From contig SVRN01000001.1 of NCBI GenBank assembly GCA_015064805.1, forward strand, positions 58,302 to 122,301: 64,000 nucleotides of DNA. Reading direction: 5' to 3'. This DNA comes from Oscillospiraceae bacterium (lineage in GTDB: Bacteria > Bacillota > Clostridia > Oscillospirales > CAG-272). Positions 1 through 9,489 of the stretch are shown here, piece by piece. The notes under the pieces are model-generated. The model made no database searches, had not been told where the DNA came from, and worked only from the letters and a program-made list of their open reading frames with translations. Both the position numbers and the translations under genes were made by a program. The first letter of the stretch is position 1. The number at the start of each line of letters is the position of its first letter.

Positions 1-372
1 GATAGCGCAAAGTCCTGAGAACATGTCGAAGTAGAAGGGAAATGCTTTGCACAAGGTAGGGTTGATATTATGAATGCTGCATTTGCCGTTTACAAGGGCC
101 TTGCAGGTTCCGTCAGGCTCCAGCGCCATTTTGTAGTAGGGCTTTTGCATTTCCTCCGAGTAGCCCTCTTCAATCAGATAAGCATAGCCGTTTTCGTAGA
201 GCTTTTGAAAGTCCTCTGGGGTCAACACGATCTCGTCAAATGGACGATTGTCAATATTGTCCAGCTCATTTGTTATGCCGGAAAAACGACCGCAGCAGCT
301 GTGCGTGCAGTGGTGCATCTTGCAGCAAAAATTAATTTTACCGTCTTTGATTTTCATGCTGTGATTACTCAT
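1..372 (-). CDS. Cys-cluster protein, YkgJ/CxxCxxCC-like; only the 5' part is present because the gene runs off the left edge of the window
   Basis: I translated the minus strand from the ATG at 370-372: MSNHSMKIKDGKINFCCKMHHCTHSCCGRFSG...EPDGTCKALVNGKCSIHNINPTLCKAFPFYFDMF. The N-terminal Cys cluster plus a C-x(n)-C-x-I-x-x-x-NP-x-x-C-x-x-FPF second half resemble the YkgJ-type zinc/iron-chelating domain. A GGTGA RBS lies between the upstream TAA (381-383) and the ATG. The ORF is absent from the track because it is open at the window edge. Confidence 0.55.
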   Translation of the reverse strand, partial: MSNHSMKIKDGKINFCCKMHHCTHSCCGRFSGITNELDNIDNRPFDEIVLTPEDFQKLYENGYAYLIEEGYSEEMQKPYYKMALEPDGTCKALVNGKCSIHNINPTLCKAFPFYFDMFSGLCAI

Positions 373-380
373 AATTCACC

Positions 381-3134
381 TTATCTTTCCGTCATTTTTT
401 TGAAGCTGATGAGCAGTGGGTCTATCATCCAAGTGCAATCGTCACTGACTCTGCCGTAATGGGGAATACAGTAATAATCGTCGGGATTTGTCAGAGGCTT
501 GGAGGTCAGAATATAGTTTGCCTCTCTCTTGGTGGCGTCATTCTTTGGAGAAGCGGTTTCGTAGGCGACCATGGTAATATTATCGCGTCGGATTTTCGTT
601 TCTCTCATGGATGCGACGATGGGATAAATGCAGCGCGCCATAGATACGAGTGTATCGTCGTTGCCGCAGATATAGTCGCCCGTGGCGTCCTTATTCTTTC
701 CGCGCTCGTTCTCGCCTCTGATATAATCGTCGATTGTCTCTTTTCTCTTCCATTTTGCATCGTCGCCAAATTTCAGGAAAGCGTAGAAATTGACAATCTG
801 CAGCTCAAGGTCGTTGTACTCATTCTTGCAGACCTGACTCTGAACCTCTTCGGTGTGAAGAAGAAGCCTGTCAATATCTTCGGTCAATTTCTCGAATTCG
901 GAATACTTGCGATACAGTTTGCTTTTCTGTATCACCTCGCGAATGTCTGAGGCATTTTTACTTTGCTCGCTATTGCCCACTTCGAGCTTTTCCAAGTACT
1001 CATCAATGGGAGAAGACTCGTCAAGATTCACGGGAACAATAAATTCCATGACCTTATCGTATTCATTTTGACCATATCTGCGTTTTGCCTCTTCCTCGGC
1101 CCATTTCAGCTCTTTAGCAACCGGTTTGCTGATCGCGGCATTGCGGCTCATAAAGACCACGACGCCTGCACATTGGCGGTTCTTTATTGCATTTTTTGCG
1201 CGCTGAGCCCAATCATTACCGCCGTGGAAATCCTTTTTGTCAAAGAAGACCTGATAACCCATTTCAGTCCACTTTTCGACGAACTGAGAAATGCGGTGAA
1301 GATCTTTTTCCTTGGAGGCAAGGGTGTCTTTATCATCATGCTCGTCATCCTTGTGGGCGTAACTGATGAATATGTACCTGTCGGTGAGGTAGCTGGAGGG
1401 CTTGGTTTTATGATCTTTCTTAAGTAAATCAAGAATGTCTTCGGCATAATCTTTGTAGGTGACTTTATTGCATATTGCCTTTCGTCCGAGCAGAGTCAGG
1501 ATAGCGGGACAGTTTTCCGAGCGCTCTATGACCTTACCGAAGCGTTCAAACAATACACTAAGATCAAGATTTTTGATTTCGTCCTTGACTTTCCAAAGCT
1601 GGTCATAATAGAATGGCTCGTTGAACGCGTCGTTTTTATCAAGACAGCGTGCATCGGTAAGCGGCTCGTACAACTCAATCAAAAGACGCATTACCCGCTT
1701 CAGATCATCCTCAAGGGGCGTTTCGGTGCTCTTGACCATCAGGTAATAATCGTCTATCGAGTACATGACCTCTTTGTCTATGAACAAATTGTCAGATTGT
1801 ATGCCGGCTGCTTTCAGAATGGTGAAGGCACGCCACTCGGCGATGATCTCTCTGCGGCGATTTTTGTATAGGTTGGAGGACTCGTAGGGGATCTTCTTTT
1901 TGAGCACCTTGATGTGAGCGCCTATTTCTTTTTCGCATTCGCTGATGCAAGGACTTGCTGCCTCCGCACTTCCCAGAAGATTGACGAGAACGCCTTTGAA
2001 AAGCGCACTTCTCCGGTTGCTTTCACTTTCATCGTCATCACGTGTGTAAAACACACTACGCACAGTTCTGAAGAAACCATGATTGATAAAAAGACCAAAG
2101 AAAATTTTGTCAATGTTTTCGAGAAGTATGATTTTATTGTTGTGCCAATGCTGGTTGCTTATGCTGCTACGGATATCTTCATCCGCGAACAGCTCGTTCA
2201 GTTCACCGCGGATGTCGGAATTTCGCTGGTTCCCGCGAAGTCCCCAAAACGGGGCAAGTGCCGCCTCAAAGGCGTTCGCCAATTTCTGCATGAAGGCGAA
2301 ATCACACCAGTACTCATCGATCGACAGCCAGTCTCCCGGTATTTCGAGAGATTGGAAAATCATGCGTACGGTCTCATTTTTAGAGGCCTGCCATCTGATC
2401 TGGCACGGTTCCGGTGTCGCGTTCAGCTCGTTAAGGCGTCTGAGACTGATGAGCAGCTCACCACTGCGCTCGCCTCGGGACACCGAGGTCATAACGTAGC
2501 AATTCGGCGTATATTCCTTGACCCAATTATCCTTTTCGTTGTTTCGGAAAAACAAGAAAGGGCGACAGTCGATTTCCGCGGTTGCGTTGCTCCCGCTTTC
2601 GTCGGTGTAATTGAAGATAAACCGCATATGCTCAAAATCAACGTCTGTGTTTTTAAGCAAGGGAAGTGATTCTACATAAGAGATAAAGATTGATTCGCTT
2701 AGCCGAAGCCCTCCAAATCTCGTTTCCGTTGCTTTTTTGAGATAATTTGAGACTTTTTGAATAATAGTATCGGGACCGTCAAAGACATTTTTGCCAAGTT
2801 CCTTGGAAAGTTCAAGGAAGGAAAATACCTGCTGCTTGCTCATCGGCTGCTTGTTGGCAGGGGTTTTGCTTTCGCCATTCGGCCAAACACTTTTGATATT
2901 ATTGCGTAGAATCATGGAGTATTGGGTTTGACTAAGCGTGGTGCCGTTTTTCAAGAGACACGCAAACGTAAAGGCCTGTATTAACGAGACATAAAGCAAA
3001 CCGATGTTAAAAGCAAGAGCAGGGTAACTAGACTCATACTCCAGATCCCTCATACGCGCCCTATTTTGACCAAAAAAGATTTTCGCAACAGCCTCGGACA
3101 TCAGGCCTTGGCTCATAAACTGATTATAGTTCAT
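381..3134 (-). CDS. 917-aa TIR-domain protein: ~585-aa unrecognised N-terminal region, central TIR domain, ~170-aa unrecognised C-terminal region
   Basis: This is a long uninterrupted ORF. Its ATG overlaps the upstream stop as ATGA (3131-3134). Its low-GC codon usage matches its neighbours. The TIR motif block is annotated separately. Confidence 0.8.
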   Translation of the reverse strand: MNYNQFMSQGLMSEAVAKIFFGQNRARMRDLEYESSYPALAFNIGLLYVSLIQAFTFACLLKNGTTLSQTQYSMILRNNIKSVWPNGESKTPANKQPMSKQQVFSFLELSKELGKNVFDGPDTIIQKVSNYLKKATETRFGGLRLSESIFISYVESLPLLKNTDVDFEHMRFIFNYTDESGSNATAEIDCRPFLFFRNNEKDNWVKEYTPNCYVMTSVSRGERSGELLISLRRLNELNATPEPCQIRWQASKNETVRMIFQSLEIPGDWLSIDEYWCDFAFMQKLANAFEAALAPFWGLRGNQRNSDIRGELNELFADEDIRSSISNQHWHNNKIILLENIDKIFFGLFINHGFFRTVRSVFYTRDDDESESNRRSALFKGVLVNLLGSAEAASPCISECEKEIGAHIKVLKKKIPYESSNLYKNRRREIIAEWRAFTILKAAGIQSDNLFIDKEVMYSIDDYYLMVKSTETPLEDDLKRVMRLLIELYEPLTDARCLDKNDAFNEPFYYDQLWKVKDEIKNLDLSVLFERFGKVIERSENCPAILTLLGRKAICNKVTYKDYAEDILDLLKKDHKTKPSSYLTDRYIFISYAHKDDEHDDKDTLASKEKDLHRISQFVEKWTEMGYQVFFDKKDFHGGNDWAQRAKNAIKNRQCAGVVVFMSRNAAISKPVAKELKWAEEEAKRRYGQNEYDKVMEFIVPVNLDESSPIDEYLEKLEVGNSEQSKNASDIREVIQKSKLYRKYSEFEKLTEDIDRLLLHTEEVQSQVCKNEYNDLELQIVNFYAFLKFGDDAKWKRKETIDDYIRGENERGKNKDATGDYICGNDDTLVSMARCIYPIVASMRETKIRRDNITMVAYETASPKNDATKREANYILTSKPLTNPDDYYCIPHYGRVSDDCTWMIDPLLISFKKMTER
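900..1379 (-). other. TIR domain (approx. aa 586-745 of the 917-aa protein)
   Basis: The block RYIFISYAHKDDE...LHRISQFVEKWTEMGYQVFFDKKDFHGGNDWAQRAKNAIKNRQCAGVVVFMSRNAAISKPVAKELKWAEEEA follows the bacterial TIR_2 pattern: an FISY-x-x-x-D start, G-x-x-W, the hydrophobic strand VVVFMS, then S-x5-EL. The candidate catalytic Glu675 codon is at 1110-1112; I verified the local reading AKELKW. Confidence 0.7.
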
Positions 3135-4504
3135 GCTTGATTCTCCTCAGCTTGATTCTCCTTGGCCGGAAGGGAAAGTTCACAGATCTTCTCTGCAAGC
3201 TTACCGTACACACGGAAGGCGCGAAGCTGATCGGCGACGCCGCCGATTTGCTCCTCGGAGAGCAGAATACGTTCTTCCCACTTGAAAAGCTCGACCTCGT
3301 TGAGCACGCTATCCTTACTGCAGAAGGTATCGTTAACAATGTTACCAAAACGGCGCGCAAGACCAGCGATCGCTTCAATTGCGGCATTGCGCTTGACGCA
3401 AAGATAATCTGAGTTGTCGTCGGGCTCGGCATACATAGGAACGGCGGTCGGGAGGAGCACGATCGGCTTGTACTTATCTCCCGCTGCTTTTCTTGTCTCT
3501 CCATTGATTTTCTTCTTTTCAAGAAAATCGCTGTGGACAGAGAGCTGGGCTTCGGTTCCGCTACGGAACTGCTTTGTAGGACGCATACAATAGACGAGCA
3601 CGTCGGAGACCTCGTGAAGTGCTTCAGCACTGCTTTGTACACCGGCGCCGCTGTCAAAAACAATTGCACAGTAACCATAATCTTCACACGTGTCTATCAG
3701 GCGTCTGAAGTTCGATGTTGTGTTTTCATCTCGAACAATCTGTGCCCCCTCGTACGCTATGTCGACGCCGAGAAAACGGATGGTCCCTTTGTCCTTGCCA
3801 AAATGGCTGGAAATGTCCAGAAAGCTGGTTGCGGGGAGCCTTTTTCTGATTGCGATTTCCGTTGCTTCTGCTTTTTGATCATCGGTGAGTTCCATATTGT
3901 GATGTATGTCTAAAAGGTCGCCACCGATACGCTTCAGTGGAAGCCGGTACAGCTGCACTCGCTTTTGATCTTTTTCGGCATCGATATCGTCTTGGAAGCC
4001 GGCCGTTGTTCTTTTATAGGCTTCGCAGTATTCGGACAGAACGCTTTTTTCGGCCCGGGTAAGCCTAACACCGTTAAGCATAGCCCGTATGGTCTCGGAC
4101 GTGCATGGGCTGTTGGGAAAGAAATCGCTAAACACGAATGCAAGTTCTTCGGCGAGGGTGCTGTCTATATCCGAGGTCCAATCCATAGTAAAAGCGGCAC
4201 TCTTATTTTGGAATATTCTGAGTTCGGATTGATAGTTTTCCAGGTAGGTAGCCTCGGGATTGAGAATCATCCTGGTTGTATGAATGGTATCGCTAAAAAG
4301 ATCCGTGAAAGGGTTTTGGTTACCGGTGTTGAAGAAATAAGTTAGACCTGCGCTCTCTAAATCAGTGTCAACAAGAAGGATGGGATGCTCGGGGCTGGCC
4401 TTAAGGACGTCGGCAAGATGACGTACGGTGTTGATCGCAGTCGTGCTTCGACCGGAGCCACCCTTGTACGAATAAAACGTAAAGCTGTTGATGTGCTCTG
4501 CCAT
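3131..4504 (-). CDS. ParA/MinD-like (SIMIBI) P-loop ATPase, 457 aa, with variant Walker A KGGSGRST and a ~200-aa insertion
   Basis: The N-terminus FTFYSYKGGSGRSTTAINTVRHLA...PILLVDTDLESAG matches the deviant Walker A plus the hvLlvDxDxq strand of ParA/MinD. A Walker B-like strand YCAIVFDSGAG does not appear until about aa 278-288. The Arg19 codon at 4448-4450 replaces the canonical GK[ST] lysine. Confidence 0.75.
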   Translation of the reverse strand: MAEHINSFTFYSYKGGSGRSTTAINTVRHLADVLKASPEHPILLVDTDLESAGLTYFFNTGNQNPFTDLFSDTIHTTRMILNPEATYLENYQSELRIFQNKSAAFTMDWTSDIDSTLAEELAFVFSDFFPNSPCTSETIRAMLNGVRLTRAEKSVLSEYCEAYKRTTAGFQDDIDAEKDQKRVQLYRLPLKRIGGDLLDIHHNMELTDDQKAEATEIAIRKRLPATSFLDISSHFGKDKGTIRFLGVDIAYEGAQIVRDENTTSNFRRLIDTCEDYGYCAIVFDSGAGVQSSAEALHEVSDVLVYCMRPTKQFRSGTEAQLSVHSDFLEKKKINGETRKAAGDKYKPIVLLPTAVPMYAEPDDNSDYLCVKRNAAIEAIAGLARRFGNIVNDTFCSKDSVLNEVELFKWEERILLSEEQIGGVADQLRAFRVYGKLAEKICELSLPAKENQAEENQA

Positions 4505-4536: not shown

Positions 4537-6618
4537 TTACTTATTTGCTGATTCCAGAAGGATTTGATACAGCATAGCCAGCGTTTTTCCTTGGCTATTC
4601 CAGTTCCCACCTGCAACGATTTCAGAAAGAAGCTGTTTTATTTGCATGGAGACTGCCTCCATGGCCTTCTTCTCCTCGTCCGCTTTCATGCCGAGAGAAG
4701 ACTTTTTATTTGCTTCGTGTACGAATTGAAGAATTTGAAGGTTTTGAAGCTGATTAAACAATTTGCCAAGAGAAATCATCAACTGAATAGCAGGGTTGGA
4801 AGCATTTGTATTGAGCAGTTGCCCATCAACATCAATGGTATTCAGCTCCGTGACATAGTCGATTACTGCCTGGATATTGATAGTGCTGTCAGCGGGAGGC
4901 GTTGCGCCCACGGTCCGAGTGATTACCTCTTTGCCTTCTTCGCTTGCGAGATACTCAGCAATTTTTTTCTCCAAGAGAACGTCGAACTCGCTCTTGGCAG
5001 GGGGAGGGTCGACGGGTGGGTCTCCGGTATATTTTGTGTGATCAAGCTCTGTCGCTTCGAATTTGTTGAGGTAATCGTAGTAGTCAACGATAGATTCGAC
5101 AGAACGCTCGGTGATAAGCAGACTATATTTTTCACCATCCCACAGACCGGCTATGGTGTTCTTAAGTTCGGAATTCTGATTTGCCCGCTCATTGAGAATG
5201 TCGTTGAACAAGCGGTCAACCGACATGTCCGGCTGCTCGGAAATATAGTAGCAGAACATGGTGTTTGCGCGAAGTGCCATAGGAACGATGGAAGGGTCCT
5301 TAAACTTTTTGGAGTCGTGTACGTTACGAATCTGTTCTATTACCTCATCCTCCTCGTGCACCCATTGAATGGGGAGCTCGGCTCTGTTCCAGAACTTTGC
5401 TCCGGTTCTGGAGGCTTGCATAAATTGTGCTCTTGCCGTGTGAATGGTTTGCTCCATTGCGTTTTTCCAAAGCTCATTGATTTTCTTGCCGCTACCATCC
5501 TTGCCAAGGTAATAGTTTGCTTCATTTTTGCTGAGATGGGAACGGCACAGATCAATAAGACGTGCGCGCTCGGAGCCGTTGCACATTACGGCGAAACGCT
5601 TATCTACAGACATGGAAACCATCATATCCACGAGGAAATAGGTATAGTTAAGATTGTAGTAACGTACAAACTCTCTCAAATCCTTATCCTTGCCTTCTGG
5701 GGTGTGATCCCACATGCCCAGACGGGCTCTGAACTCCTCGTTTTCCGCGCCGTTCATATCTTCGCAGGTGGCTAGCGTGGGCATATCGAACATACAGGTC
5801 TCGATGAGCCACGTCTGGACCTTTTCTCTTGCGTTTTCTACTGCCTTGGTTACGTCGAAGCCGAGCGTGGTATCCAAATGCTTTATAAGCGTTTTATCGG
5901 TAAGCCTGATTTTCTCCTTTTCCATATCTTCGTCTGAAAGCTCCGAATACGTGTAGGCGATTTCACCGAGCACGTAGTCGAAAAAGTCAGCGAGAGACGC
6001 GCAGGCAGAGTAGGTAAAGTACAGCGAAGCGGAGGATTCGGTATCTGCGTTGAAGCCCCACATGCCGTCTTCTCTCTGCGCTTTGAGCAGACGCTCTAAC
6101 GAGTCCACCATAAGCTCCAGATACTGCTTGCGGGTTTTATCGTCAAAACGGATAATGCCGCCCAAGTCGTTGTTGTCATTGGGAAGATCAACTCTGCGCG
6201 AGAGGATCGAAACCGAAAGCACCCACGTGAGGGTATCAACGTATCCGGCGTTGTTTCCACAGAAGAGAGCTACGGCGTCTGTACTGTCACAATCCACTAA
6301 CGGATCTGCGGTGTAGCCGTAGTTGGTGACGCGTTCATAAATCTTGTTCAGGGACTCCTTGTGAAGATTGGCGATCTCACGGCGGTCCTCTTCGCTGATT
6401 ACGTTCTCGTCTTCGTTGAAGGCAAGAAGAAGCAGAAGAAGAGAAGTAAGGCCAACGGCTTCGGATACGAGGCCTGGAGAGTCCATGCTGTCCATATCGA
6501 CAAAAGCCTTGCTTTCATTCCACTTTCCAATAAGCGTTTGCTTGGTTAGCGCCGCAGCTTCACGGACTTTTTGGATTTTTGACAAAATCTTGTTGCTTTT
6601 TTCTTTGACGCTTGGCAT
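4537..6618 (-). CDS. 693-aa orphan, mostly helical protein, possibly an alpha/alpha-toroid; first gene of the TIR operon
   Basis: This is a long ORF with an AAGGAGG RBS 7 nt upstream of the ATG at 6616-6618. A single QREDGMWG motif (6055-6078) resembles the QxxDGxW repeat of terpene cyclase/prenyltransferase-like toroids. A Pro-rich linker (GDPPVDPPPAK) precedes a ~150-aa helical tail. I recognise no other domain. Confidence 0.7.
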   Translation of the reverse strand: MPSVKEKSNKILSKIQKVREAAALTKQTLIGKWNESKAFVDMDSMDSPGLVSEAVGLTSLLLLLLAFNEDENVISEEDRREIANLHKESLNKIYERVTNYGYTADPLVDCDSTDAVALFCGNNAGYVDTLTWVLSVSILSRRVDLPNDNNDLGGIIRFDDKTRKQYLELMVDSLERLLKAQREDGMWGFNADTESSASLYFTYSACASLADFFDYVLGEIAYTYSELSDEDMEKEKIRLTDKTLIKHLDTTLGFDVTKAVENAREKVQTWLIETCMFDMPTLATCEDMNGAENEEFRARLGMWDHTPEGKDKDLREFVRYYNLNYTYFLVDMMVSMSVDKRFAVMCNGSERARLIDLCRSHLSKNEANYYLGKDGSGKKINELWKNAMEQTIHTARAQFMQASRTGAKFWNRAELPIQWVHEEDEVIEQIRNVHDSKKFKDPSIVPMALRANTMFCYYISEQPDMSVDRLFNDILNERANQNSELKNTIAGLWDGEKYSLLITERSVESIVDYYDYLNKFEATELDHTKYTGDPPVDPPPAKSEFDVLLEKKIAEYLASEEGKEVITRTVGATPPADSTINIQAVIDYVTELNTIDVDGQLLNTNASNPAIQLMISLGKLFNQLQNLQILQFVHEANKKSSLGMKADEEKKAMEAVSMQIKQLLSEIVAGGNWNSQGKTLAMLYQILLESANK

Positions 6619-6669
6619 AATCAGCCCTCCTTGAATTGAAAGATATGGTGGGAATTAAAATTATAAATT

Positions 6670-6698
6670 ATTATAGCACATAATTTGATCATTTGCAA
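6670..6698 (-). promoter_or_regulatory. Sigma-A-type promoter of the TIR operon
   Basis: The minus strand reads TTGCAA (6693-6698), a 17-nt spacer, then TGc-TATAAT (the -10 hexamer at 6670-6675). It lies about 50 nt upstream of the 6618 start in an AT-rich spacer. Confidence 0.55.
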
Positions 6699-6848: not shown

Positions 6849-6877
6849 TTGACAATTTTTGTCAATTCATGTATAAT
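6849..6877 (+). promoter_or_regulatory. Consensus sigma-A promoter for the downstream transporter; the -35 is embedded in a palindrome
   Basis: TTGACA (6849-6854), 17 nt, TATAAT (6872-6877). The palindrome TTGACAAtttTTGTCAA (6849-6865) overlaps the -35. Confidence 0.5.
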
Positions 6878-6938
6878 TGAAAACGCAAAGCACATCGGCC
6901 GAGTTCAATGCCGATATGAATGTGACAGAGGAGAGATT

Positions 6939-8549
6939 ATGAAACTATTTTTGGATTATCTTTCGCAAAATCCCCTTTTGGCGATTTGTATTTGCCTGGC
7001 ACTGGGCTATTGTATCGGATTTCTGAAGATCCGCACCTTTACGCTCGGCGCAACGATCGGCACTTTGCTGGTCGGTTTTGTCTTGAGCCGCTTTACTTCC
7101 TTCACCATACCCGGTATTTTAGTGACGCTGTTCTCGTTGTTCTTCTGCTTTACCCTGGGATATGAGGCCGGGCCGGCGTTCTTTAAAAGCCTGAAATCAA
7201 ACGGTATAAAATTCATTATACAATCAGCCTTTTTCTGCGTTGCGGCCTTTGCTTTTCTGTACGTGCTGGATCTGACCGGCGTTCTGGATCGAGACACCAT
7301 TATCGGTATGGCGGCCGGCGCCCTGACGCAGACCTCAATACTGACCGTGGCAGAGGGCTTAGGGGATATGGCCTCCATTACCTATGCGGTTACCTACATC
7401 ACGGGTACGCTGTTTGCCATTCTTTTTGCCTCGGTCATCGGGCCGAAGCTGCTTCGCACCTCGCCCATTCTGGCGGCAAAGCATAAGATCGATAAGACCA
7501 AGGCTGTGAACGTTGCCACGGATGAGCTTGACGACGTAAGAATCGCCCCCGTTTTCCCCAGAGCCTTTGTGATGGAAGAGGGATCGAAATATCTTGGCAA
7601 AAGCATAGAGGAGCTCGAAGATGATTTTGAGCACTCGTTGGAGGTAGTCAAGGTGTTCCGCAAGGACAAGGAGATTGCTCCGGCGCAGGATCTTGTCGTA
7701 CAGCAGGGCGACGTTCTGACGATCATCAGCCCCATTCAGCAAATGATCGCGTTTGACGATGAATTTGCTCGTGAGGTGAGTGATAAAAAATACGTATCTC
7801 TTGAACTGTCGACGAAAGAAATTATCGTGACGGAAACGATGGATCGCTCTGCGGTGGATTTCCTGAGTGCGAGCGGCGTGGTGCTTCACACCATCACATC
7901 GGCCAAGGGAAAGAAGCTGGCTGTCACCGACGAGGTTACCTTGTCCAAGGGAATGATATTTAAGGTTTCCGGTGTTGAGGCCTCAATCAAAAAGGTTGCA
8001 CAGCAGATCGGTTATATCAAGGAAGTGGGAAGCGTCACGGACGTTCCGCTCGTGTTTGCTGCGCTGGCTCTTTCCGTTGTGTTCGGTGCGCTGAAGATTG
8101 CCGGCTTTGGTCTTGGCGACAGCACGTGCGCGCTGATCCTTGGTTTGGTTTGCGGATGGTTCCACAACAAGAACCCCAAATATGGAAAATTCCCGGAAAG
8201 TGCCAGATGGTTTTTGAAGAGCATTGGTCTGAATCTGTTTATTGCCGTCAAAGCGTTGACAACGGGGCTTTTCAAACTGGATCTTCAAATGCTCATGATC
8301 CTCGGCATCGGCATTGCCGCAACCCTGGTCCCGCACATTATCACACTGCTGTTCAGTAAGCACGTTTTGAAAATGGACGACGCGGACGTTCTGGGCGGTC
8401 AGTGTGGCAGCGGCACGTGTACCGCGGCCTTGAACTCCCTGATCGATTCTGCCGGAAGCTCGGTCTTTACGGCCAGCTACGCAACGACAAACGCCGTGGC
8501 CAATATTCTTTTGACCGCTCTTGGCATTGTTCTGTCGGCGGTATTGTAA
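6939..8549 (+). CDS. AAE-family (AspT/YidE/YbjL-like) transporter with two central TrkA-C/RCK_C-like domains
   Basis: The protein starts MKLFLDYLSQNPLLAICICLALGYCIGFLKI. It has duplicated membrane halves around a soluble middle region (EGSKYLGKSIEELE...VKVFR...GDVLTI). The start was moved to the ATG at 6939, which follows a GAGGAGAG RBS; the track start at 6849 lies inside the promoter. Confidence 0.75.
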   Translation: MKLFLDYLSQNPLLAICICLALGYCIGFLKIRTFTLGATIGTLLVGFVLSRFTSFTIPGILVTLFSLFFCFTLGYEAGPAFFKSLKSNGIKFIIQSAFFCVAAFAFLYVLDLTGVLDRDTIIGMAAGALTQTSILTVAEGLGDMASITYAVTYITGTLFAILFASVIGPKLLRTSPILAAKHKIDKTKAVNVATDELDDVRIAPVFPRAFVMEEGSKYLGKSIEELEDDFEHSLEVVKVFRKDKEIAPAQDLVVQQGDVLTIISPIQQMIAFDDEFAREVSDKKYVSLELSTKEIIVTETMDRSAVDFLSASGVVLHTITSAKGKKLAVTDEVTLSKGMIFKVSGVEASIKKVAQQIGYIKEVGSVTDVPLVFAALALSVVFGALKIAGFGLGDSTCALILGLVCGWFHNKNPKYGKFPESARWFLKSIGLNLFIAVKALTTGLFKLDLQMLMILGIGIAATLVPHIITLLFSKHVLKMDDADVLGGQCGSGTCTAALNSLIDSAGSSVFTASYATTNAVANILLTALGIVLSAVL

Positions 8550-8562
8550 CCGATCTACATTC

Positions 8563-8597
8563 AAAGAGATCCCCCCGTGTGACGGGGGGATCTCTTT
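8563..8597. terminator. Strong hairpin after the transporter gene
   Basis: AAAGAGATCCCCCC gtgtgac GGGGGGATCTCTTT forms a 14-bp perfect stem. No clear U-tract follows on either strand. Confidence 0.5.
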
Positions 8598-8631: not shown

Positions 8632-8660
8632 TTGACACTCTACTTCCTGCGTGATATAAT
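8632..8660 (+). promoter_or_regulatory. Consensus sigma-A promoter
   Basis: TTGACA (8632-8637), 17 nt, TGa-TATAAT (8655-8660). Confidence 0.55.
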
Positions 8661-8697: not shown

Positions 8698-9489
8698 ATG
8701 AACGAACTGACCGTACTGGAACGCATTCGCGAAGAAATGGAAACGTTGCCGGGTCATCTTGGCTTTTACTATAAAAATCTCGTGACGGGAGTTGAATTCG
8801 GCATCCGCGAGAATGAGATCTACGGGGCGGCAAGTATCATCAAGTTCCCGCTGTTTCTTCATATTCTGGCCGAGTGCGACAAGGGGAATATGTCGCTTGA
8901 CGACCGCCTTGTGACCGAGGAATCGGACAAGGTTCCCAGTTGCGGTGCTTTAAATATGTTCACGGGCGCGGTTGAGACCGACATCCGTACGCTGTGCCGC
9001 TTGATGATCTGCATCAGCGACAACACCGCCACCAACCGCCTGATCCGTCATTGCGGCTTTGAGGCCATCGAACAGGGCTTTGCCGAGATGGGATTGGATC
9101 AGACGAGGATCCGCCGTTTGCTGTTTGACGCAAGCGCCAACGCCAAGGGCATCCGCAACTCCATCAGCCCGGGTGAGCTGGGGCGGCTGCTTGAGAAGCT
9201 GTATCGCGGTGAATTTGTCAGCAGGGAAGTCAGCGACTACGCCATCGAGGTGCTCACCGAGCAGCAGATCGGCCACAAACTGGGCGGCAAGTTGGGGGAG
9301 GACGTGCTCATTGCCCATAAGACGGGCGAGGACACCAATCTCAGCAACGACATCGGCATCGTTTACGCCGACAAGCCCTTCGTCGTCTGCTTCACGGGTC
9401 ATCAGACGGACGTTTATCGTTGGGAGGATCTGATGCGCCGCGGCGCTTACGATCTCTATCAGGCGAACGCCCTGCCATCAGAAGAGTAA
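8698..9489 (+). CDS. Class A beta-lactamase-related serine hydrolase
   Basis: The motifs are S-x-x-K (AASIIKF), SDN (ISDNTATN) and KTG (HKTGED), with the order and spacing typical of class A enzymes. An AAGGGGA RBS precedes the start. Confidence 0.8.
   Translation: MNELTVLERIREEMETLPGHLGFYYKNLVTGVEFGIRENEIYGAASIIKFPLFLHILAECDKGNMSLDDRLVTEESDKVPSCGALNMFTGAVETDIRTLCRLMICISDNTATNRLIRHCGFEAIEQGFAEMGLDQTRIRRLLFDASANAKGIRNSISPGELGRLLEKLYRGEFVSREVSDYAIEVLTEQQIGHKLGGKLGEDVLIAHKTGEDTNLSNDIGIVYADKPFVVCFTGHQTDVYRWEDLMRRGAYDLYQANALPSEE

Follow-up and report, generated by a model that had tools for sequence, protein, structure and literature searches.

A rare family of predicted alpha/alpha-toroid proteins heads a conserved gene cassette that carries a TIR protein in Clostridia

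What kind of protein stands at the head of an operon that also encodes a TIR domain, and what could it contribute there? The question is raised by gene A, which lies at positions 4,537 to 6,618 of the window, the 64,000-nucleotide stretch of contig SVRN01000001.1 from an Oscillospiraceae bacterium that was analyzed in this study. Genes B, C, D and E follow A, with D cut by the window edge and E just outside it. An initial annotation made from the letters alone described A as a helical orphan with one terpene-cyclase-like motif, proposed a toroid fold, and suggested that such a scaffold could serve a TIR operon as a ligand or peptide sensor. The 693-codon open reading frame (ORF) that it used is real, and can now be assigned to the minus strand. 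The ATG is at 6618-6616 and the stop codon at 4537-4539, while the plus-strand translation of the same interval is riddled with stops. The segment LERLLKAQREDGMWGF is found in the translation, and the motif QREDGMWG was confirmed at its reported position when read on the minus strand.

The structure of A was modeled with AlphaFold2 using the homologue alignment. The model has a mean predicted local distance difference test score (pLDDT) of 87.4 and a predicted template modeling score of 0.76, with 421 residues above a pLDDT of 90. It consists of three parts: an all-alpha region to about residue 530, a low-confidence Pro-rich linker at residues 532-540, and a helical tail at residues 544-692. 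The hydrophobic stretches quoted in the initial annotation fall in predicted helices, and the Pro-rich linker followed by a helical C-terminal tail is seen in the model as described. The tail is poorly conserved, with an identity to the window residue of 0.19 vs 0.38 for the toroid in the homologue alignment. In profile searches the tail matched ZorA and designed coiled coils, but these matches reflected composition and were rejected.

The model was compared with the PDB using Foldseek. Nothing was found at E ≤ 1e-3, all matches having E ≥ 0.013, and about 44 of the top 50 matches are alpha/alpha toroids of the (alpha/alpha)6-7 type (E 0.013-0.28, probability mostly 0.75-1.0, template modeling (TM) score about 0.4-0.5 on the target). 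Among these are cellobiose and glucose 2-epimerases, mannose isomerase, haptocorrin, the thioester domains (TEDs) of C3d, C3, C4, alpha2-macroglobulin and TEP1, and GH105, GH88, GH8, GH76, GH47 and GH154 enzymes. Non-toroid matches among the top 50 had probabilities of 0.28 or less. In contrast, a search of the BFVD viral structures returned only helical, tape-measure-like noise with probabilities ≤ 0.44, mostly ≤ 0.23. The confident model and the toroid-dominated list, with its weak E-values, both point to the fold that had been proposed. We therefore predict that A is a closed ring of about 6-7 helical hairpins, an alpha/alpha toroid in the sense of a structural class and not of a homologous family. 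Internal repeats were not significant when eight segments of A were compared using hhalign (probability ≤ 28%), the sole high score coming from overlapping segment ends. A carries one QxxDGxW turn and three looser GxWD/FWN turns. Taken as a whole, the gene A product is predicted to be a cytoplasmic protein of a previously unnamed family, with a toroid of about 530 residues, a linker and a tail.

A homologue search of 5.8 billion proteins generated 54 homologue clusters for A, none of them informatively named or carrying a Pfam domain. A itself, searched by sequence against Pfam, NCBIfam, PADLOC and the PDB, likewise had no meaningful match. An exhaustive profile search of 1.84 billion representatives identified 225 proteins at E ≤ 1e-3, so the family is rare. 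The library searched is unannotated; judging by their lengths and profile coverage, the 225 matches are the A family itself together with truncated or divergent members. Fifty-three homologues, 28-62% identical to the window protein, were aligned. The initial annotation had allowed that its motif might prove unconserved among homologues. Instead G185, W187 and G188, along with Q181, are invariant in the 53-homologue alignment, with the consensus QREDGTWGF. Five very distant relatives (20-27% identity) all keep G185 and W187; four of the five keep G188 and only two keep Q181, which suggests that the conserved core of the motif is DGxWG and not the Q. When the window is translated in all six frames, there is a single QxxDGxW(G). 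Its chance rate is about 1e-7 per position, or about 0.02 expected per window, a rough estimate from typical residue frequencies. Conservation across homologues is the stronger argument that the motif did not arise by chance.

Conservation in A extends well beyond the motif. Sixty positions are at least 90% identical, including 11 Asp/Glu, 17 aromatic and 3 Arg residues. With Met1 excluded, 26/59 highly conserved positions survive in the relatives at 20-27% identity, among them D41, Y126, W132, S135, D211, E219, R450, Y458, W493 and D494. The charged face of residues 500-520 consists of invariant or nearly invariant columns, and each of the five distant relatives retains T503, R505, D512 and D515. 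Judged from the alignment, this pattern argues for a constant site for a ligand or partner, not for the diversifying surface of an invader sensor.

Thirty loci encoding A (L001-L030) were fetched, of which 26 extend far enough to judge the gene order. A-B-C-D occurs in the same order in 26/26, and E comes next in 18. Cassette genes are joined by ATGA-type overlaps, as for B and C in the window, and the D and E ORFs overlap through their stop and start codons in several loci. No other recurring gene family was found in the flanks of the cassette loci. The initial annotation had proposed looking for co-occurrence and co-evolution of A with the ATPase (B) and TIR (C) genes. Co-occurrence is strict, and the pairwise identity matrices correlate well (A-B r = 0.73, A-C 0.83, B-C 0.86; all Mantel p ≤ 5e-4). 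Its description of A as the lead gene of a TIR operon holds insofar as A is first in the cassette, but the cassette also has a CxxCxxCC gene and usually a pyridoxal phosphate (PLP) decarboxylase, and the TIR domain is found in only one clade.

Mean pairwise identities are 0.32 for A, 0.39 for B, 0.29 for C, 0.63 for D and 0.61 for E, making D and E about twice as conserved as A-C. Correlations among A-D range from 0.62 to 0.86, while those of E with A, B, C and D are only 0.21-0.37. E thus diverges discordantly from A-D, and may be swapped between cassettes or track its host. None of the distant subfamilies has E, and 7 loci, TIR-bearing or TIR-less, lack it as well. We considered E as a mere housekeeping neighbor and rejected the idea, since D is followed by E in 18 loci whose flanks differ, and the stop and start codons often overlap. 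One locus from an uncultured Christensenella is aberrant at both ends: gene A is split into two ORFs of 236 and 454 aa (L027, 9932-11979), and E is short at 353 aa (L027:16437-17498), possibly a decaying copy or an assembly error.

Gene C supplies the TIR domain. Residues 588-709 match TIR_2 (E = 5.6e-9), and the top Foldseek matches of the TIR region are SPARTA TIR-APAZ and plant NLR TIR domains. Glu675 is invariant among C homologues and aligns, by profile alignment, with the Glu of the YEL motif of AbTIR, which we take to be the catalytic Glu of TIR NADases. The C TIR domain thus appears to be of the NAD-cleaving type with its catalytic Glu kept, and C would be an NADase. A repeat homology search for C that started from an alignment gave back the same 11 proteins, and because of this the AlphaFold2 model of C is only moderate (pLDDT 71.9), with the last ~120 residues (from about 800) poorly predicted. 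The N-terminal 580 residues and the C-terminal domain of ~150 residues found no matches. Residues 823-916 (nt 384-668) form a separately conserved module, IYPIVAS..RE...YYCIPH...W..DPLLI, which has a pLDDT < 50 and no family match.

The best library match of B is NCBIfam NF047398, 'KGGVGR-motif variant AAA ATPase' (E = 3.8e-18; 66.5 bits, below the cutoff of 90). Its deviant Walker A motif, KGGSGRS, is invariant in 24 B orthologues and is kept in the TIR-less relatives. Replacement of Lys by Arg in P-loop NTPases usually cripples hydrolysis. Among PDB sequences B found only a non-significant match to P1 ParA. The window copy of D is partial and scores 25.6 bits against PF03692, above the cutoff of 23, and the copy in L032 scores 28.3 bits. 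C17, C22, C26 and C27 of D are invariant, as are C-terminal cysteines. A JGI contig from the same genome (L009) contains the full D of 165 aa followed by E, with the rest of D and E at L009:10730-12753. E is a 480-aa OKR_DC_1 PLP decarboxylase with an invariant PLP-lysine motif, SMHKTGG. It resembles Arg, Lys and Orn decarboxylases and reaches no equivalog cutoff.

Three distant subfamilies contain A (625-700 aa), B (335-399 aa, KGGSGR kept), a protein in the place of C that we call C' (~690 aa), and D, and have neither TIR nor E. These TIR-less cassettes come from a Pyrinomonadaceae metagenome-assembled genome (MAG) and three metagenome contigs. All that the Pyrinomonadaceae C' (L028:12916-15006) has in common with the window C is the C-terminal stretch of ~100 residues (E = 1e-10), and for another C' no similarity to the window C was detected by BLASTP. 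A further distant A was found on a Bacteroidota MAG contig (L029) that ends within A. Because the distant relatives lack both, TIR and E are best seen as additions that the Clostridial clade made to a more ancient A-B-C-D core. Insertion of modules of this kind is typical of conflict systems, and the function of the core need not be NAD-based.

Hosts of the cassette are mostly uncultured gut Clostridia (Faecousia, Acutalibacteraceae and Christensenellales). The others are one archaeal gut methanogen of the Methanomethylophilaceae and single genomes of Acidobacteriota and Bacteroidota. In the source genome the cassette lies within a low-GC island of about 11 kb, with a GC content of 0.42-0.52 vs 0.55-0.59 in the flanks. 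The cassette is horizontally mobile. Neighbors in some loci are defense-like and include TIR-NPHP3_N, Apyc1-like, SIR2, SMC/LmuB-like, WYL, Cas6, MazE and integrase genes. Of ten neighbor proteins scanned with PADLOC, only one SMC/LmuB-like and one TIR protein scored. This context evidence for a 'defense island' is only suggestive.

We tentatively suggest, with a confidence that falls a little short of even, that the cassette is a conflict module of the anti-phage, abortive-infection type, in which an NTPase gates a TIR effector and A serves as the constant binding subunit. The deeply conserved acidic, aromatic and Arg residues of A would bind a small cationic or nucleotide-derived ligand, or partner proteins. 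B, a putative hydrolysis-impaired nucleotide switch of the ParA/MinD type, would couple A to C, so that A and B, presumably in a physical complex, gate C. Once released, the TIR domain of C in the Clostridial clade would deplete or convert NAD+. D may give a metal or redox function through a Zn or Fe-S cysteine cluster, and E may give an amine. We read the cassette as a conflict system because the TIR domain is like the NADase TIRs of SPARTA and plant NLRs and keeps E675, and because A-C evolve fast (mean identity 0.29-0.39) in comparison with D and E (0.61-0.63). The low-GC island, the patchy hosts, the rarity of the family, the defense-like genes near some loci and the precedent for MinD/ParA-like domains (PMC7159879) point the same way.

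Several results weigh against a role in defense. No copies of A were found in plasmid, phage and IMG/VR contig collections. Most flanking genes are housekeeping genes, which leaves the defense-island context weak. PADLOC v2 (2023) recognizes none of A, D and E, and its matches to B and C are confined to the generic P-loop and TIR regions. The distant relatives have neither a TIR domain nor a recognizable effector, and so the ancestral core may not be a defense system. Finally, D and E are strongly conserved and enzyme- or cofactor-like, which is more typical of a metabolic pathway.

This last point would fit a cassette that makes or handles a small molecule, either a specialized metabolite or a signal, an alternative that we consider unlikely but substantial. 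Here A would be a toroid hydrolase, isomerase or cyclase-like enzyme using its invariant Asp/Glu residues, acting on the amine made by E and/or an NAD-derived product of the TIR domain, with D supplying a metal or Fe-S center. The best fold matches of A are indeed enzymes (AGE-type epimerases, GH105, GH88 and GH8), and the 11 acidic and 17 aromatic positions conserved at ≥90%, many of which persist at 20-27% identity, are in keeping with an enzyme. The high identity of D and E, the intact SMHKTGG motif, the overlap of the D and E ORFs, which suggests translational coupling, and the mostly housekeeping neighbors are also what such a pathway would predict. However, A has no catalytic signature of any known toroid enzyme family, and the rate at which A, B and C evolve is far above that of typical pathway enzymes. 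The absence of E from 7 loci and all distant subfamilies and its discordant divergence (r = 0.21-0.37) imply that the core is independent of E.

A-B-C-D may be an unrecognized nucleotide-switch machine, ancestral to and independent of TIR, in which the toroid is a receptor for a small cationic or NAD-derived molecule and relays its occupancy through the hydrolysis-impaired ParA-like protein to a modular effector. We regard this as a doubtful proposition. In the Clostridial clade the ligand of the toroid could be the amine from E or an ADP-ribose-amine conjugate made by the TIR domain. If true, prokaryotic immunity would have its first sensor built on a toroid, and an immune pathway would for the first time include a dedicated amino-acid decarboxylase.

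The TIR-less cassettes also bear on a third explanation, that the A-B-C-D core assembles a metallocenter or cofactor. B would then be an insertion NTPase of the SIMIBI class (Mrp/NBP35/CooC-like), with D as the Cys-cluster donor or carrier; A and C would provide the client or scaffold, and TIR and E would be later add-ons. Besides the occurrence of the core without TIR, B relatives in the TIR-less cassettes match CbiA (3.1e-8, above the cutoff) and the ParA/NUBPL iron-transfer NTPase (2.2e-5, below the cutoff), and D, a CxxCxxCC protein whose cysteines are invariant, is a putative chelator of Zn or Fe. We judge this improbable, as Arg replaces the P-loop Lys throughout the superfamily and A, with one invariant Cys and no invariant His, has no obvious metal site. 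The rare, patchy and fast-evolving family is also unlike housekeeping maturation factors.

Could A, despite its divergence, truly belong to a known toroid family and perform the chemistry of a class II terpene cyclase or prenyltransferase, a LanC-like protein or a TED? The initial annotation had named these families, drawing on the QW-like motif. TED/C3d structures are among the Foldseek matches, and a profile of the N-terminal domain of A searched against all PDB sequences gave three sub-threshold matches, two of which, 6vpt and 8v0f, belong to class II terpene cyclases and align through their QW repeats. They were the sole toroid proteins in that search, and at E = 0.11 and 1.0 they are non-significant. 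The SQHop_cyclase, Prenyltrans, LANC_like and A2M_TED models of Pfam have no match at E ≤ 1 in the window protein or in any of the 53 members. A contains no D.DD, the DxDD proton-donor motif, anywhere in its sequence, no GG[FW].G corresponding to the GGF/WxG repeats of prenyltransferases, and neither CGEQ nor C.EQ for a thioester. Zn ligands are also missing, both the Asp/Cys/His set of prenyltransferases and the Cys/Cys/His triad of LanC-like proteins, there being no invariant His in A. C285 is the only invariant Cys, and conservation is 0.89 for C275, 0.83 for His393 and 0.77 for His421. There is only one QW-like motif, Q181 is lost in 3/5 distant relatives, and the top 50 fold matches contain AGE-type and TED structures but no cyclases or prenyltransferases. 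With the defining motifs absent, A fits no named toroid family, and membership in one, which we hold to be very improbable, is largely refuted by the motif tests.

That the motif is a chance match and A a generic helical or coiled-coil orphan without a toroid is scarcely credible and, to the extent that prediction allows, refuted: all Foldseek E-values are ≥ 0.013 and profile-profile comparison found no internal repeats, but the motif is conserved across 53 homologues, the AlphaFold2 model is confident, ~44/50 top matches belong to one fold class, and the viral structure search gave only low probabilities.

The features of the cassette that lie in the window are listed in table 1. The promoter-like site upstream of A is a consensus match only, with 10/12 matching positions plus the TG extension of an extended -10 element. 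The window contains no tRNA or Rfam element.

Table 1. Positions of gene A, its signals and protein regions, and its partner genes in the window.
Feature	Position	Strand	Remarks
Gene A, 693 aa	4537..6618	-	ORF; founding member here of an unnamed protein family
Ribosome-binding site of gene A, AAGGAGGG	6625..6632	-	Strong, canonical; ends 6 nt upstream of the gene A ATG
Promoter-like site of the cassette, TTGCAA-17 nt-TGcTATAAT	6670..6698 (read 6698-6670)	-	Consensus scan
A residues 1-530, alpha/alpha-toroid-like domain (predicted)	5029..6618	-	AlphaFold2 pLDDT mostly >90; Foldseek
QREDGMWG, A residues 181-188, QW-like turn after helix 160-180	6055..6078	-	
A residues 500-520, LLITERSVESIVDYYDYLNKF, last toroid helix (predicted)	5059..5121	-	Charged face T503 E504 R505 E508 D512 D515 Y516
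A residues 526-545, Pro-rich flexible linker, DHTKYTGDPPVDPPPAKSEF	4984..5043	-	pLDDT <50 at 532-540; identity 0.13
A residues 546-693, variable helical tail	4540..4983	-	Helices 544-692, pLDDT 46-88 by 10-residue block
Gene B, 457 aa, ParA/MinD-like P-loop protein, KGGxGR variant	3131..4504	-	NF047398
B deviant Walker A, KGGSGRS, Arg for the P-loop Lys	4445..4465	-	
Gene C, 917 aa: N-terminal helical/beta region, TIR, conserved C-terminal domain	381..3134	-	Start overlaps the B stop (ATGA)
C residues 585-760, TIR domain; Glu675 codon 1110-1112	855..1382	-	Foldseek, TIR_2
Gene D, CxxCxxCC/YkgJ-type cysteine-cluster protein, first 124 codons, cut by the window edge	1..372	-	PF03692

Several observations were made around the cassette. 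The window cuts the cassette short; beyond E, on L009, the low-GC island also holds YbjN and LRR_5 genes. On the other side of A, in the window, are two perfect 12/12 sigma-70 promoters, TTGACA-17-TATAAT, at 6849-6877 and 8632-8660 on the plus strand. The first coincides with the TTG 'start' of ORF 6849..8549, an Asp-Al_Ex/TrkA_C transporter. The true start of the transporter is therefore probably downstream, which is consistent with the JGI call of 536 aa and not 566. A GC-rich palindromic hairpin at 8570-8590, TCCCCCCGTGTGACGGGGGG, is terminator-like on both strands and separates the transporter gene from a class-A-type beta-lactamase-family gene (8698-9489).

Two other neighborhoods deserve mention. 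Directly after E in L001 (L001:16138-18130) are an Apyc1-like metallo-beta-lactamase-fold gene of the anti-Pycsar family and a TIR-NPHP3_N (NLR-like) gene; an anti-defense-type fold is odd amid a defense-like neighborhood. In a Clostridial contig (L002:1568-7832) the cassette has a block of four genes immediately upstream of it, and the Methanomethylophilaceae archaeon has one there too, its genes of the same sizes (L014:1115-7121). The block encodes a RyR-domain protein of ~565 aa, a DUF4231/SLATT-like protein of 656 aa, and two more proteins of ~430-455 and 338-435 aa, one of which has Sel1 repeats in L002. A RyR gene also adjoins A in L027 (L027:7559-9766). PADLOC recognizes none of the four genes. 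The block could be a second conflict system that travels with the E-less subtype of the cassette.

TIR-based immunity is common to bacteria, plants and animals, and to our knowledge each bacterial TIR system resolved to date has brought to light a new signal or a new logic of activation. The TIR-less A-B-C-D relatives offer a natural dissection of core from effector. As the cassette occurs in uncultured gut Clostridia and has passed to a gut methanogen, it may shape phage-host dynamics in the gut microbiome. At a minimum, A brings with it a new protein family, which is useful for annotation: the family numbers >200 clusters, its fold is predicted with confidence and its operon context is strict. 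The initial annotation knew of no precedent, and none came to light: literature searches found no description of the A family or of this gene combination, and literature and database searches found neither a named family nor a paper describing one.

How does A compare with known toroids? The best structural matches are the (alpha/alpha)6-barrel epimerases and isomerases of the AGE superfamily (8h1l, 3wkf and 5x32), with probabilities of 0.97-1.0 and a TM score of about 0.5 on the target. Both are closed rings of helical hairpins, that of A being predicted. The toroid of A is larger, ~530 residues vs ~400, and the identity is only 6-10% at E ≥ 0.013. AGE proteins use His residues for catalysis and function in sugar metabolism, whereas the catalytic His has no invariant counterpart in A and the A cassette has no sugar-metabolism context. 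Membership of A in the AGE superfamily was rejected on the lack of an invariant His, the 6-10% identity in the Foldseek alignments and the lack of a Pfam match. Class II terpene cyclases of the squalene-hopene cyclase type (6vpt, 'Cyclase', and 8v0f, copalyl diphosphate synthase) have QW repeats that align with the turn LxxQxxDGxWGF after an outer helix of A, for example LNTQRPDGSWGF with the family consensus LdaQreDGtWGF, at non-significant E. These enzymes have 5-8 QW motifs, two toroids and DxDD, compared with one motif, a single toroid and no DxDD in A. TEDs of C3/C4, alpha2-macroglobulin and insect TEP1 (9n1z, 7o7p, 4lnv and 8oq3) recur in the Foldseek list with probabilities of 0.82-0.99. 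In contrast to them A is predicted to be cytoplasmic, without surrounding MG domains or CGEQ, and the TM score on C3d is only about 0.4. The nearest structures to A therefore appear to be AGE-type epimerases and TEDs, and the nearest sequence echo the QW repeat of terpene cyclases.

The same comparison can be made for the cassette. SPARTA and this cassette are both multi-gene operons in which a TIR protein has a non-TIR partner, and the C TIR domain is structurally closest to TIR-APAZ and plant NLR TIRs. The Aga_TIR models match only C residues 623-707, and there is no Argonaute gene in any locus and no APAZ. For Thoeris, ThsB_TIR of Pfam scored E = 0.22, PADLOC gave no Thoeris match and the cassette has no ThsA-like gene. 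B resembles the PADLOC component PDC-M28B in the P-loop only (E = 1.1e-8, residues 4-58); C matches generic TIR models and no PDC-M28 component, and A, D and E have no PADLOC match. Proteins of NF047398 have the same deviant Walker A as B, which scores below the cutoff of that family. TIR NADase defense systems are known with SLOG, SIR2, Macro and ThsA partners, none of which the cassette has. Its TIR protein is instead accompanied by a toroid, a ParA-like and a Cys-cluster protein and by a PLP decarboxylase, which are not seen together with TIR in any described system. The systems closest to the cassette are TIR NADase defense operons and the NTP-dependent conflict systems of Kaur et al. (2020, PMC7159879), the latter described with neither a toroid nor a CxxCxxCC partner. 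Inactive MinD/ParA-like domains are reported in those systems next to TIR/AP-ATPase effectors, whereas B is a stand-alone protein of 335-457 aa with large insertions.

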